Origin: Escherichia phage Mt1B1_P3
Reading direction: 5' to 3' (one strand)
DNA length: 40,313 bases
Sequence record: MT496969.1
Shown here: piece by piece, positions 37,270 through 40,313 of the stretch
How the letters are laid out: the number at the start of each line of letters is the position of its first letter
Numbering within the stretch: the first letter of the stretch is position 1
Translations under genes and position numbers: made by a program
Notes under the pieces: model-generated
Database searches by the model: none
The model's input: the letters and a program-made list of their open reading frames with translations, nothing else
What the model was told of the DNA's origin: nothing

Positions 37270-37530
37270 TCACTTGCATATCAGTTGGTTAGCGTGGAGA
37301 TGGCTGAAGTCACCATTGGTCGTGTGCTTGATGGTTGACCGTTGGTCCATCGCCTTCCAGCCTGAGACTAAAAGTTTACCATCGTCAGTGATCGGTCGTC
37401 CACCATACGCCAGACACATCAGTTCGTACTCATGGCCCTCAGCCTTCATGCGGCGATGTAAGAACTCGTCACGCTGTATTTGCTCTATACGGCTACGGAT
37501 AGATGGCTTGTTAATGTATACTGTTTTCAT
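37270..37530 (-). CDS. Early hypothetical protein (86 aa)
   Basis: ATG overlapping stop of upstream ORF (TAATG); no recognised motif. Confidence 0.55.
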   Translation of the reverse strand: MKTVYINKPSIRSRIEQIQRDEFLHRRMKAEGHEYELMCLAYGGRPITDDGKLLVSGWKAMDQRSTIKHTTNGDFSHLHANQLICK

Positions 37531-37727
37531 TACAGTTTGCTCCCAATAGTTGCTATATCCCAGACGTTCGCTAAGTTGCGCATGAATCGTCCGTTAGGTT
37601 GACGTACAGTCCAGCGGCCCAGACGTACATAGTTTAATTTGTATACTCTATGCGCTTTATTGATGTCTCTCACCAGCACGTAGGCGATAAGTCCATAGCC
37701 TATGGCTATCAATAGTGCAAGACTCAT
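37530..37727 (-). CDS. Early hypothetical small membrane protein (65 aa)
   Basis: N-terminal hydrophobic helix MSLALLIAIGYGLIAYVLV followed by basic region; weak RBS. Confidence 0.5.
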   Translation of the reverse strand: MSLALLIAIGYGLIAYVLVRDINKAHRVYKLNYVRLGRWTVRQPNGRFMRNLANVWDIATIGSKL

Positions 37728-37835
37728 AGTGATTTCCGTTTAATACAGTCGTATATCCCCCAAGCTATCAGAAAGATGACCGGAGATAAGCATACCAAAT
37801 GTCCAACACTCATAGTTAACCTCTATCAATTTAAG

Positions 37836-37888
37836 TGGTAATCTTTGAGGCCACCTATCAGTCGATGACCTCTCGTCTATCACTCAGC
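37836..37888 (-). promoter_or_regulatory. Putative RNase III processing hairpin (early region)
   Basis: AAGTGGTAATC...GAGGCCACC...GATGACCTCTCGTCTATCACTCAG; same family as elements at 38270, 39066, 39386. Confidence 0.45.
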
Positions 37889-37902
37889 TAGGCCTTACAC
37901 GG

Positions 37903-38250
37903 TTACACTTCCACCGATACAGTGGTCATCTTGCTTACAGTCAGCCCACCAGCAAGCTCAACCGCATAGCGTATCGCCTCCTCTTTGGACTTGAAGTCCT
38001 TTCCTGCAAGGTGGTAAATATCACCTGTTATTACCTTAGAAGGCCGGCGACTCACCGCAATGGCGTTTTCCATGGCAAGCTCACCACGGATATACTGAGT
38101 AAACCAGCGCTTCACCGAACTCGTTCCCACCCCGAACTTTTGGGCGGTTTCAGTCACCCTATCCATAACTCCCTCAGGCAGAGAGGTGTAGTAGTTAACA
38201 ACGTTGAGTTTAAATGCTACCGAGAATACATTGCGAGTTTTAGCAGTCAT
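37903..38250 (-). CDS. Early protein with transposase-type helix-turn-helix N-terminus (115 aa)
   Basis: FSVAFKLNVVNYY...TETAQKFGVGTSSVKRWFTQY resembles the IS3/IS911 OrfA HTH signature (FSxEFKLxVV...G.S...V..W..Y); GAAGGA RBS. Confidence 0.65.
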   Translation of the reverse strand: MTAKTRNVFSVAFKLNVVNYYTSLPEGVMDRVTETAQKFGVGTSSVKRWFTQYIRGELAMENAIAVSRRPSKVITGDIYHLAGKDFKSKEEAIRYAVELAGGLTVSKMTTVSVEV

Positions 38251-38269
38251 TATTCTTTCCTTCTGTAGT

Positions 38270-38328
38270 TATCAAGTGGTAATCACTCAGGCCACCATGT
38301 AGATGACCTGTAGTTTAACACTCAGTAC
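38270..38328 (-). promoter_or_regulatory. Putative RNase III processing hairpin (early region)
   Basis: Minus RNA can pair CAGGUCAU with GUGGCCUG (8 bp incl. G-U) around a 7-nt loop, flanked by imperfect lower stem. Confidence 0.45.
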
Positions 38329-38352
38329 CCACCTGTCAGCGTTATGGTCAGG

Positions 38353-38520
38353 CTATGGTAAATATTTCTTGTCCTCAGCGTGTAGGCTGTCGTGTATGCG
38401 CTTGCGTCTCCTGTAGACCACTTTCAAGAGGCGCATAGACTCCTCGTGGTTTAATCTCCCGGTCTTGACCATAAGCCGGGCGTTGGTGACGTGGTGCTGG
38501 CAGAGACCATAAGTTACCAT
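38353..38520 (-). CDS. Small early ORF (55 aa), hypothetical
   Basis: Hand translation MVTYGLCQHHVTNARLMVKTGRLNHEESMRLLKVVYRRRKRIHDSLHAEDKKYLP; ATG overlaps Ocr stop (TGATG), GAGGAGG 10 nt upstream. Confidence 0.4.
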   Translation of the reverse strand: MVTYGLCQHHVTNARLMVKTGRLNHEESMRLLKVVYRRRKRIHDSLHAEDKKYLP

Positions 38521-39050
38521 CACTCGCAGTCCTCCTCAGCAGCCTCAGGATCGAACACTACGTTATCGTTGATGTCTTCGACCTGCATGTGAAAACCTTC
38601 CTCATAGAGTTCTTTTGCACATGCAATAGCCTCGCAAAGTGATACAGCTGCCTCAATTATCTCGCCTGTTCTAGTGTCAACTACCCAATATTCAGCCTTT
38701 TCGTCCTCCTCTTCAGCCTTTTCGTCTTCCTCTTCAGCCTCAAACCAGACCACCTCAGAGCTATTAGACACATCGTTATACAGTGCCTCATAGATGCGAG
38801 CTTGTAGTATACGCGTTACGTCCTTGGTCTCAGGCATCAGCCCAGAGTCTTCGAACTCATTGTCAATACCATCAGCAGCCATCACCGTGTAAATCTCGTG
38901 GTAATAATGCGGAACATTACCGTCTACGACCTCATGCAGCGCATCACTGTAGTCATCGCCTTCAGCTATTTCGTCGCACTGAATACGCTCATTGAACAGC
39001 TCAACGGTTGCAGCCAGCAGCTCATAGTATGCGTTAGCGTTACGTTCCAT
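38520..39050 (-). CDS. ocr: Ocr-like DNA-mimic anti-restriction protein (gp0.3) with C-terminal extension
   Basis: Core [47 protein letters not shown] matches T7 Ocr ([46 protein letters not shown]); 176 aa vs 117 aa in T7, with duplicated EEDEKAE and about 55 extra C-terminal residues. Confidence 0.9.
   Translation of the reverse strand: [176 protein letters not shown]
38690..38740. repeat. 21-bp tandem duplication inside ocr (encodes EEDEKAE x2)
   Basis: cagccttttcgtcctcctctt / cagccttttcgtcttcctctt adjacent copies on plus strand. Confidence 0.8.
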
Positions 39051-39065
39051 AGTTATATCCTCTCA

Positions 39066-39124
39066 GTTGTTAGTGACTATCAGTCAGGCCGCTATAAGTC
39101 TAACGACCTGTAGTTAATCACTCT
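39066..39124 (-). promoter_or_regulatory. Putative RNase III processing hairpin (R0.5-like)
   Basis: GTTAGTGACTATCAGTCAGGCCGC-loop-ACGACCTGTAGTTAATCACT; imperfect long hairpin between first early ORF and ocr. Confidence 0.45.
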
Positions 39125-39378
39125 CAGTTAGCGAAATAAGGAGCTGAGACGCCCGCTGTAGGACTCACGGTTATCTGCGAATCTATCAGGTAGGTCTCGT
39201 TGTCTATGCGCACAGTATCTATGCTGTAGTTGCTGAACGGCTTGCTTGAGACCTTGCGCACTACCACACGGTGACGCGCTCCTGTCATCTCTTTAAGCTG
39301 AATCCACGCATAACCTTTAGTGTTCACGAATACTTCATTGTGATTAGTGATTGTGCTTAAGTGTTTCATAGTGTTCAT
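39124..39378 (-). CDS. First early ORF (84 aa), hypothetical
   Basis: Open frame fills the interval between two RNase III-like elements upstream of ocr; no obvious Shine-Dalgarno; no recognised motif. Confidence 0.45.
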   Translation of the reverse strand: MNTMKHLSTITNHNEVFVNTKGYAWIQLKEMTGARHRVVVRKVSSKPFSNYSIDTVRIDNETYLIDSQITVSPTAGVSAPYFAN

Positions 39379-39385
39379 CCGTTAA

Positions 39386-39449
39386 GTTAGTGACTATCAG
39401 TCAGGGCCTTCAGATGTAGACTCAAAGGCCCTGTAGTTAGTCGCTATCT
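39386..39449 (-). promoter_or_regulatory. Putative RNase III processing hairpin (R0.3-like) in early leader
   Basis: Perfect 8-bp inverted repeat AGGGCCTT (39403-39410) / AAGGCCCT (39425-39432) with 14-nt loop, flanked by imperfectly complementary arms. Confidence 0.5.
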
Positions 39450-39678: not shown

Positions 39679-39708
39679 ATAATACTTTAATTATATACTT
39701 CTTGTCAA
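39679..39708 (-). promoter_or_regulatory. Candidate host sigma70 early promoter
   Basis: Minus strand TTGACA (plus 39703-39708) then 18 nt then TATTAT (plus 39679-39684); correct orientation for early genes. Only one of the expected multiple early promoters could be picked out by eye. Confidence 0.35.
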
Positions 39709-39999
39709 CTACTTTCTGTCGGTTGCCTGTTGTTCGTATGTCTTACAGGCTGACTACTTAACCGGACCGGACCGGCGTCTTCACTATCCGGTTGTTGCCG
39801 TGTCGTGTTGACGGAAGCTATTAGGCCATATCCTTGACCTATAGTCAATAGGTAATTTGAAATAATACTGATTAAGCTATCGTCGGCCTCATGGTGTAAG
39901 AGGATATAGTCTTTGACTAACATGTCTTGGACCTTAAGTCTATAGCTCTGTGTCTAGTAACTGTAGATCTATGACTGTAGGTGTTGGTGTCTTATGGTT

Positions 40000-40076
40000 G
40001 AGACTGTAGGTTAGTGAGACTGTAGGTTAGTGAGACTGTAGGTTAGTGAGACTGTAGGTTAGTGAGACTGTAGGTG
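40000..40076. repeat. Tandem 16-bp repeats (gagactgtaggttagt x4.8) adjacent to right DTR
   Basis: Four exact copies plus a partial one, preceded by a degenerate copy at 39971-39983. Confidence 0.9.
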
Positions 40077-40111
40077 TAGGACGTAATGTTATACTATAAC
40101 ACTATACAGAT

Positions 40112-40313
40112 AGAGACTCAAAGAAGACCTATAGCCTCTACCTATCGTCCTTCCATAAGCCATAGCCTAGACCTATCGTTGACCTGAAGTCCTGACCATC
40201 GGTCCAACCTTATGACAGACTGGCTGTGACTGCAAGGAGTAGTAACGGGTAGGGCCTTTGGTCTGGACTTAAAGAGGGCCTATGGGGAGACTTGAGGTTC
40301 TTGAACTGTGAGA
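40112..40313. repeat. Right direct terminal repeat (DTR)
   Basis: Identical to bases 1-202. Confidence 0.85.

Follow-up and report, generated by a model that had tools for sequence, protein, structure and literature searches.

K1F-type phages are used in therapy and engineering, and RNase III-type hairpins between early modules are known from T7. The T7 kinase gp0.7 (T7K) has been described to carry out a broad anti-defence phosphorylation, and T7 dispenses with it under standard conditions (PMC13645617). Another early protein of T7, Gp0.4, inhibits the polymerisation of FtsZ (Kiro et al. 2013, as cited in PMC9372555). Infection by K1F leads to filamentous cells with about four Z-rings (PMC9372555). 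Here, the early region of Escherichia phage Mt1B1_P3 was compared with these systems, using the whole stretch of 40,313 nucleotides in record MT496969.1 (the window). The original prediction, made from the sequence, had placed Ocr and open reading frames (ORFs) of 84, 55, 115, 65 and 86 amino acids (aa) between the leader and the RNA polymerase gene; all of them were found, with these sizes and limits. From the evidence given below, it is likely that the region represents the early (class I) operon of a Kayfunavirus of the K1F type, with a 55-aa protein of the gp0.4 type and without the kinase, which is an optional module in the genus.

Every long ORF of the window lies on the minus strand, and the first 202 bases (1-202) recur at 40112-40313. 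Due to these 202-bp direct terminal repeats, the window can be regarded as a complete linear T7-like genome that is read from the right end. A megablast search with the leader and early region matched 248 phage records, the best matches being Kayfunavirus MT1B1P3 (98.5% identity, 100% of the query) and Escherichia phage ASO2B (99.1% identity, 96% of the query). K1F matched with 91.5% identity across 73% of the query. The RNA polymerase encoded by gene 1 shares 62.6% of its residues with T7 gp1 and 93.5% with the polymerase of IMM-002. In the record of ASO2B the same six genes (Ocr and the five small ORFs) are annotated, and the counterparts of K1F are found in GenBank as gp0.2, 0.3, 0.35, 0.37 and 0.38. 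The architecture is already known, since it has been deposited and annotated with the same gene content, the K1F precedent resting on GenBank records. An unusual arrangement, as implied by the original prediction, is not supported: ASO2B (99.1%) has the same gene set, the K1F layout has been in GenBank since 2005, and absence of the kinase is normal for this lineage.

The slot of the gp0.7 kinase

The original prediction that the region lacks a gp0.7 kinase was borne out by all approaches applied. A tblastn search with T7 gp0.7 against the window gave a best E value of 3.6. A hidden Markov model (HMM) built from six diverse gp0.7-type kinases (T7, Berlin, Katbat, IMM-002, Cd1 and Cota) was run against the six frames (849 stop-to-stop segments in all) and revealed a best E value of 1.3 (4 bits), compared to 3.4e-62 for the IMM-002 kinase in a leave-one-out control. 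Pfam and PHROG scans of each early ORF yielded no kinase family (including phrog_2828 and phrog_15752). The 55-, 115- and 86-aa families were also aligned with the kinases profile to profile (hhalign), which gave probabilities of 0.1-0.7%; through full-length T7, T3, Berlin and Katbat, this kinase alignment spans the C-terminal shut-off domain (gp0.7 residues ~243-359). From ocr to gene 1 the longest ORF, apart from Ocr with its 176 aa, comprises 115 aa and is too short for a kinase domain of ~230 aa. A diverged kinase among the ORFs, one of the findings named by the original prediction as contradicting it, was looked for by HMM, Pfam/PHROG and profile-profile comparison, and none was found. 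A detached gp0.7 shut-off domain was considered for gp0.38 (86 aa), for which hhalign was negative, and for gp0.37 (65 aa), for which a chance-level blastp match was the only hit and no profile comparison was made.

In GW1, SFPH2, Dev2 and IMM-002, a 244-aa gp0.7-type kinase is located upstream of the gp0.37 homologue. IMM-002, which is classified as a Kayfunavirus, shows the order SAMase, 106-aa ORF, 244-aa kinase, gp0.37 homologue, endonuclease VII, gp0.38 homologue and gene 1; its gp0.37 and gp0.38 homologues are 74% and 66% identical to those of the window. The Kayfunavirus kinase is carried at an aa identity of at least 80% by ~44 phage records including Dev2, GW1, SFPH2, ESh23 and SFP21A/B. 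It is 31% identical to T7 gp0.7 and does not possess the C-terminal shut-off domain. In GW1 and SFPH2, the kinase is placed between the 115-aa gene and a hairpin named h4 (Table 1), the 115-aa gene of GW1 stopping two bases ahead of the kinase start. The window aligns with GW1 from 38359 to 37898 (91% identity), as far as the kinase start, and its positions 37890-37839 align with the GW1 sequence that begins at the kinase stop. From these breakpoints it follows that the window differs by exactly the kinase ORF. Only 7 nucleotides and a hairpin occupy the slot in Mt1B1_P3. Two copies of h4, the hairpin at window positions 37832-37887, enclose the kinase of SFPH2; 216Ecol046PP has one hairpin and lacks both the 115-aa gene and the kinase. 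To judge by these alignments, the kinase is an optional module showing a presence/absence polymorphism within the genus, and its absence is not peculiar to Mt1B1_P3. Recombination between two hairpin copies, as they occur in SFPH2, would yield the arrangement of Mt1B1_P3.

With the kinase absent, Mt1B1_P3 does not possess the broad anti-defence phosphorylation described for T7K. A depletion of Ser, Thr and Tyr has been reported for early proteins of kinase-bearing phages, at which a comparison of their content was aimed. The values were 0.166 for the window, 0.160 for K1F, 0.166 for the kinase-bearing GW1 and 0.121 for T7.

The hairpin at the slot is one of four (h1 to h4) in the early region, all of them intergenic and related to each other as direct repeats. 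h3 and h4 form an 81-87% direct repeat flanking the 115-aa module. The core ACAGGTC...GGCCT is shared with the annotated T3 RNase III sites R0.3, R0.5 and R1, and RNAalifold folded the four hairpins together with the three T3 sites into one structure consisting of a lower stem, an internal loop and an upper stem of ~10 bp. Of the 19 pairs of this consensus, 11 revealed compensatory changes. Rho-independent terminators, three of which are annotated in ASO2B, were discarded as an interpretation; the hairpins lack a T-tract, were not selected by a terminator scan and resemble the T3 RNase III sites. By analogy with T3, the four hairpins are putative RNase III processing sites which may split the early transcript into modules. 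They may also serve as homologous sequences for module exchange.

The 55-aa protein and T7 gp0.4

The 55-aa ORF is the counterpart of K1F gp0.35 (86% identity). Its start overlaps the ocr stop (TGATG, 38520-38522) and it is preceded by the Shine-Dalgarno sequence GAGGAGG. In the same way, gene 0.4 of T7 starts where gene 0.3 ends (base 1278). A blastp comparison with T7 gp0.4 revealed 36.6% identity over 41 aa. The ORF strongly matched phrog_5058 and only weakly (0.02) phrog_7202, the family of T7 gp0.4, while T7 gp0.4 in turn matched phrog_5058 at 9e-5. A precomputed match to the Pfam domain PF26807 exists for each of the 43 T7 gp0.4 relatives and also for P0029, a chimera with an N-terminal part of the gp0.35 type. 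When an alignment of 13 gp0.35 sequences was compared with one of 21 gp0.4 sequences by hhalign, an E value of 3.7e-5 was obtained over 46 columns with a score of 27.9, compared to a mean of 8.9 (standard deviation 2.0, maximum 17) for 200 column-shuffled controls. Judging from the sequence comparisons, the 55-aa ORF is probably a diverged homologue of the T7 gp0.4 FtsZ inhibitor. In GenBank record PP328844, the copy of the 55-aa ORF present there has already been noted as 'similar to gene 0.4 protein'. A paper linking K1F gp0.35 with gp0.4 was not encountered in the literature searched.

A 2026 study of T7 Gp0.4 allows the residues to be compared individually. The toxicity of this protein is abolished by a single alanine at V15, V22, W28, M32, L35 or Y39, the escape variants W28L and L35P no longer bind FtsZ, and residues A12, T14, L16, S19 and R23 face the CapRel-Ebc sensor (PMC13423816). 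Five of the six FtsZ-facing residues are identical in the 55-aa protein (V11, V18, M29, L32 and Y36) and conserved across 13 family members. Of the residues probed with regard to CapRel (A12, T14, L16, S19, R23 and K36), K36 is the only identical one. By analogy with T7 gp0.4, the 55-aa protein most likely binds the polymerisation surface of FtsZ and blocks cell division. The sequence relationship also makes K1F gp0.35 the obvious candidate for the division inhibitor of K1F, an inhibitor that the 2022 study held to be novel (PMC9372555).

Alternative readings of the early region

Several points weigh against the reading of the region as a class I operon with an optional kinase and a gp0.4-type protein. 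No experiment on any of these early proteins was found in the literature searched. In their wider context, h3 and h4 were barely more stable than shuffled sequence (z about -1.4), an Rfam scan of the early region gave no matching family, and cleavage of the hairpins is inferred only. Just one strong sigma-70 promoter was detected, by a scan performing near chance (7 found, 4.6 +/- 2.2 expected). As for the kinase, the homology breakpoints are observed, while the direction, i.e. loss of the kinase or a kinase never gained, is an interpretation. It is well conceivable that the lineage never had a kinase and that the module was inserted at the hairpin in the GW1/SFPH2/Dev2 lineage, which would mean a gain elsewhere and not a loss here. 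K1F, 216Ecol046PP, LM33_P1 and many others do not possess the kinase either. The distance of the Kayfunavirus kinase to T7 gp0.7 (only 31% identity) and its missing shut-off domain point in the same direction, as does its position upstream of the 0.6-like gene, since the T3 kinase is encoded downstream of gene 0.6. On the other side there is nothing decisive: loss and gain result in identical breakpoints, and the duplicate hairpins of SFPH2 fit a hairpin-carrying insertion and a deletion substrate alike. It is extremely improbable that the small ORFs, or another part of the genome, conceal a kinase that is diverged, split or frameshifted. Such a kinase might be suspected from the Ocr gene of LM33_P1 (LT594300 gp3), which is labelled 'Phage protein kinase', from IME177 (MZ398247), in which the match to the Ocr tail lies under a 'protein kinase' annotation, and from blastp, in which the 65-aa ORF weakly matched gp0.7 residues 270-293 at chance level (E 0.03, database of six proteins). 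The label in LM33_P1 is an annotation error because it sits on the Ocr gene. With Ocr as the largest ORF of the early region and with tblastn, six-frame HMM, Pfam/PHROG scans and profile-profile comparison all negative, a hidden kinase is refuted at the sequence level.

The gp0.4-type assignment, the other part of the preferred reading, suffers from the remoteness of the link (33% identity overall, hhalign probability 71%). At the position of W28, a residue required by T7 Gp0.4 to bind FtsZ, the gp0.35 family has His, Tyr or Asn (His in the 55-aa protein), and F26 and C24, both invariant in the T7 family, are not kept. It is also a matter of general knowledge that small early proteins switch targets easily. 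Moreover, the 2022 study stated that K1F does not possess gene 0.4, reported no BLAST similarity and did not identify the inhibitor (PMC9372555). The 55-aa protein might be a gp0.4 relative by descent whose target has changed, the division block being exerted by another early protein (such as the 29-aa peptide, gp0.37 or gp0.38). We consider this rather unlikely, as five of the six functionally validated positions of the FtsZ interface are identical family-wide while this applies to only one of six CapRel-facing positions, as the position and the translational coupling to ocr are kept, and as K1F does block Z-ring function (PMC9372555). Even less can be said for the idea that some or all of the small ORFs are untranslated and the region is mostly regulatory RNA, which is very unlikely. 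Substitution patterns in comparison with seven relatives showed a synonymous bias for the 55-, 115- and 65-aa ORFs, and Shine-Dalgarno sequences precede Ocr and the 55-, 115- and 29-aa ORFs, some of which exhibit start/stop overlaps as in coupled genes. For the 84- and 86-aa ORFs, the synonymous bias among close relatives is weak and the counts are unimpressive, and the 84-aa ORF, under mild purifying selection among these relatives, has only a weak Shine-Dalgarno sequence. Their coding character rests on distant homologues, since proteins 34-50% identical to the 84-aa protein occur in unrelated N4-like phages, and on 24 invariant columns in the 86-aa family. Two further ORFs, although annotated in relatives, do not show coding constraint. 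The 72-aa 'gp0.1' ORF (39705-39923, minus strand) overlaps the early promoter region and revealed indels and nonsynonymous changes far exceeding synonymous ones. The 47-aa GTG ORF (37740-37883, minus strand; phrog_36394) overlaps h4 and showed 3 synonymous versus 15-18 nonsynonymous codon changes; the 29-aa ORF uses another frame of the stretch holding it. On this pattern, both are probably not genes.

The architecture favoured here, a class I operon with an optional kinase and a gp0.4-type protein, is ordinary for K1F-like phages, and finding it changes nothing in itself. Near-isogenic natural pairs (Mt1B1_P3, ASO2B and SH3 versus GW1 and SFPH2) could, however, show the contribution of the kinase on wild hosts. 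The suggestion of the original prediction to search among early genes for host-takeover or anti-defence functions remains valid. A bolder proposal, which we regard as unlikely, is that at least one early protein (115, 84 or 86 aa) takes over part of the anti-defence or shut-off role of the T7 kinase and that, separately, the gp0.4-like protein keeps FtsZ binding while remodelling the surface recognised by CapRel. If it were true, kinase-replacing early proteins would constitute new effector types.

Remaining modules of the operon and comparison with known systems

The 84-, 55-, 65- and 86-aa ORFs match PHROG families without an assigned function (E 1e-25 to 1e-41), and the 115-aa ORF matched no PHROG family. 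NCBIfam and PADLOC scans of all ORFs gave nothing meaningful. The designation of the five ORFs as unassigned was correct for the 84-, 115- and 86-aa proteins insofar as none of them belongs to a named T7 or T3 family. It has to be abandoned for the 55-aa protein (gp0.4 family) and the 65-aa protein, which is a homologue of T3 0.6. The sensitive homology search of each ORF, which the original prediction had proposed, thus led from the 55-aa ORF to gp0.4, from the 65-aa ORF to T3 0.6 and from the 115-aa ORF to a probable helix-turn-helix (HTH) protein. In the last one, a recognisable N-terminal HTH stands beside a C-terminal domain that matches nothing known. All five listed small ORFs are present, but a sixth one of 29 aa at 37724-37813 had been overlooked.

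Table 1. Positions of the genes, hairpins and promoter of the Mt1B1_P3 early region in the window
Feature	Position	Strand	Remarks
Candidate early promoter, sigma-70 type	39679..39708	-	TTGACA-18-TATTAT; 11/12 consensus matches; consensus match only
Hairpin h1	39386..39448	-	upstream of the 84-aa gene; -27.2 kcal/mol, z -4.4
84-aa protein, K1F gp0.2 family	39124..39378	-	first gene of the operon; phrog_10124, E 7.6e-41
Hairpin h2	39069..39125	-	upstream of ocr; -23.3 kcal/mol, z -4.2; direct repeat of h1; aligns with T3 R0.3
Ocr DNA mimic, 176 aa	38520..39050	-	PF08684, E 2.4e-30, residues 7-99
55-aa protein, K1F gp0.35 family	38353..38520	-	ATG at 38520; 56 aa from a GTG one codon upstream
Hairpin h3	38272..38325	-	upstream of the 115-aa gene; nearly identical in sequence to T3 R0.5
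115-aa accessory early protein	37903..38250	-	N-terminal HTH and constrained C-terminal domain of ~50 aa
Hairpin h4	37832..37887	-	junction holding the kinase module in relatives
29-aa hydrophobic peptide ORF	37724..37813	-	MSVGHLVCLSPVIFLIAWGIYDCIKRKSL; GAGG Shine-Dalgarno; ATGA overlap with the 65-aa gene
65-aa membrane-anchored protein, K1F gp0.37	37530..37727	-	phrog_2385, E 1.9e-31; hydrophobic N-terminus
86-aa protein, K1F gp0.38	37270..37530	-	just upstream of gene 1; phrog_7066, E 3.9e-38
Gene 1, T7-type RNA polymerase, 893 aa	34491..37172	-	downstream limit of the early region

The 84-aa protein has homologues in 118 phage records, among them those of N4-like podoviruses and of a 151-kb phage. 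The 34-50% identical homologues mentioned above are encoded near the left end of the N4-like phages EC1-UPM, pSb-1 and SP5M; further ones are encoded by nepoznato, the 151-kb phage (75%), and by PGT2. Given this distribution, the 84-aa gene looks like a mobile early gene. Ocr exceeded the cutoff of PF08684 clearly (105.4 bits, cutoff 25) and is 58-60% identical to T7 Ocr, with a match to PDB entry 1s7z (1.3e-26) restricted to residues 8-117. It is also longer than T7 Ocr (176 versus 117 aa) on account of a C-terminal extension of ~58 aa (38520-38700), which follows the acidic tail. The extension occurs in 70 phage records, each time as the tail of Ocr, and no solved structure was matched by it. 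At 38691-38732, a 21-nucleotide tandem duplication encodes EEEDEKA twice, which explains the difference of 7 aa in length from K1F Ocr.

The 115-aa protein has 29 homologues and was detected in only 25 phage records. Its matches to the Pfam families BrkDBD (E 4e-4, 20.6 bits, threshold 23.4) and HTH_Tnp_1 (14.0 bits, threshold 24.1) stayed below threshold, whereas the homologue P0025 passes HTH_Tnp_1 (PF01527) with 27.6 versus 24.1 bits. AlphaFold2 (AF2) predicted helices at residues 11-23, 31-39 and 43-54, the block having a pLDDT (per-residue confidence) of 76-88, and the best Foldseek matches in the PDB were homeodomains, TnsB and TnpE, all of them weak (E 0.3-1). The protein most likely binds DNA. 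Across 23 homologues, residues 66-115 hardly vary, while identity in the HTH part falls to 45-60%. In comparison with GW1 and SFPH2, the C-terminal region revealed 16-18 synonymous and 4-5 nonsynonymous codon differences; this synonymous excess indicates that the constraint acts on the protein. The C-terminal domain was modelled by AF2 with low confidence, and Foldseek searches against PDB and BFVD retrieved only HTH look-alikes and its own homologues.

An IS3-family transposase can be dismissed for the 115-aa protein, as a DDE domain is absent and the NCBIfam IS3 profile gave 14 bits (cutoff 160) over the N-terminal 46 profile positions only. The name 'Transposase' given in UniProt to homologues such as A0A345AV87 is an over-annotation. 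In relatives, the C-terminal domain of the 115-aa protein is also part of in-frame chimeras. It is fused to a SAMase N-terminus in Dev2 gp0.2 (P0028), whose public name 'SAM-dependent methyltransferase' is misleading, and to a gp0.35 N-terminus in P0029. In P0194, a gp0.35 N-terminus is joined in frame to a gp0.37 C-terminus, and P0019 is a further chimeric early ORF. These ORFs resemble the products of deletions between early genes. It may be meaningful that the C-terminal domain of the 115-aa protein has survived repeatedly beside the kinase.

Frame and hydrophobic character of the 29-aa ORF are kept in SH3, 216Ecol046PP and SFPH2 despite a nucleotide identity of 71-83%, but the ORF is missing from the annotated gene lists of ASO2B, SH3, 216Ecol046PP and SFPH2. 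In K1F and Esher7, the slot is occupied by a 55-aa protein with two transmembrane segments (gp0.36). For the 65-aa ORF, predicted to be a membrane protein, a hydrophobic N-terminus was indeed seen. It is 42.9% identical to T3 gp0.6 over 63 of 65 aa (blastp, E 5.6e-10 in a four-protein database), and homologues were found in 217 phage records. On the strength of this match, the ORF is a homologue of T3 gene 0.6, which explains the '0.6' labels in the records of K1F, Dev2 and IMM-002. An identity with T7 gp0.6, the MreB inhibitor, was rejected; neither blastp nor tblastn gave a match to gp0.6A, and the PHROGs differ (8393 versus 2385). Since the 65-aa protein is unrelated in sequence to T7 gp0.6, no inference about MreB can be drawn. 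The 86-aa family comprises 125 homologue clusters, mostly on contigs of ~40 kb and none with a Pfam domain. Its 24 invariant columns were determined in 41 sequences (62-92% identity). In the C-terminal motif IKHTTxGDFSHLHANPLICK, H69 is invariant and H77, H79 and C85 are nearly so; this conservation suggests that the His/Cys motif could be a metal-binding site. The AF2 model (pLDDT 53.5) was too poor for a fold search, and a PDB profile search gave chance matches only.

The candidate early promoter lies in the leader, upstream of the first early gene, where the non-coding 'gp0.1' ORF has its 3' end. The leader also contains a 16-nucleotide unit in five tandem copies at 39999-40078 (TGAGACTGTAGGTTAG, plus strand). 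A weak sigma-70-like match (38312-38339, minus strand; CTGACA-16-TAAACT with an upstream TG), which is within chance expectation, is situated inside h3 and just upstream of the 115-aa gene. In ASO2B, a promoter is annotated just downstream of this match, abutting the start of the 115-aa gene. The match could be an own promoter of the 115-aa module, for which the minor B and C promoters of T7 provide a parallel. Outside the early region, the genome encodes homologues of T7 gp2 (47% identity) and gp5.7 (77%), whose T7 counterparts are host RNA polymerase inhibitors. Within the limits of a tblastn search of the whole window (E <= 1e-3; diverged or replaced counterparts were not searched), T7 gp5.5 (H-NS antagonist), gp5.9 (RecBCD inhibitor), gp4.5, gp1.1, gp4.3, gp4.7, gp5.3, gp7 and homing endonucleases were not found.

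By analogy with T7 and T3, the host RNA polymerase would read the operon from the leader promoter or promoters, and cuts in the RNase III-type hairpins would divide the transcript into five modules. The first would contain the 84-aa gp0.2 gene, the second Ocr and the 55-aa ORF with their overlapping stop and start, and the third the 115-aa HTH protein. The fourth would comprise three genes coupled by ATGA overlaps, those for the 29-aa peptide, the T3 gp0.6-like 65-aa protein and the 86-aa gp0.38, and the fifth would consist of gene 1. Without the kinase, host transcription could be shut off by the gp2 and gp5.7 homologues, restriction might be countered by Ocr, and cell division would most likely be blocked at FtsZ by the 55-aa protein.

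Compared to its closest relatives, Mt1B1_P3 has in common with K1F, ASO2B, MT1B1P3 and SH3 the order gp0.2, long-tailed Ocr, gp0.35, gp0.37, gp0.38 and gene 1 as well as the absence of the kinase. The 115-aa gene is also present in ASO2B and MT1B1P3, which are 98.5-99.1% identical across 3.1 kb. By contrast, K1F lacks this gene and carries gp0.36 in place of the 29-aa ORF, and its Ocr has one 7-aa acidic repeat less. With the kinases of T7 (gp0.7/T7K) and of Kayfunaviruses (IMM-002 gp06, GW1 gp13), the locus shares the slot, since relatives with 85-93% identical flanks carry the kinase at the h4 junction, whereas it is absent in every frame of Mt1B1_P3. The HTH protein resembles IS3 OrfA and Brinker-type proteins in its N-terminal ~60 residues, which match weakly and are predicted to form a three-helix bundle, but it lacks a transposase catalytic domain and its C-terminal part is without a known match. 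The product of T3 gene 0.6 resembles the 65-aa protein in its length of 65 aa, an N-terminal hydrophobic helix, the motif TVR(Q/E)xNGRF and an early-region location behind an RNase III site; the next genes are 0.65 and 0.7 in T3 but gp0.38 in Mt1B1_P3.

The operon resembles the class I region of T7 in several respects. In both, the stop of ocr overlaps the start of a gene for a small protein, a gene for a hydrophobic peptide overlaps at its stop with the gene that follows, RNase III-type hairpins separate the modules, and gene 1 comes last; Mt1B1_P3 also has gp2 and gp5.7 homologues later in the genome. The 29-aa ORF is the positional analogue of T7 gene 0.5, which encodes a hydrophobic protein of 47 aa. 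The 55-aa protein is similar to T7 Gp0.4 in length (55 versus 51 aa), in its slot after ocr and in the motif YGL, and differs from it by an entirely changed CapRel-Ebc surface (A12/T14/L16/S19) and a basic C-terminal tail. What separates Mt1B1_P3 from T7 is the absence of gp0.7, an extra gp0.2 gene upstream of ocr, a gp0.4 relative of only ~33-37% identity, the lack of sequence similarity to T7 gp0.5 or gp0.6, and the additional genes for the HTH protein and gp0.38.

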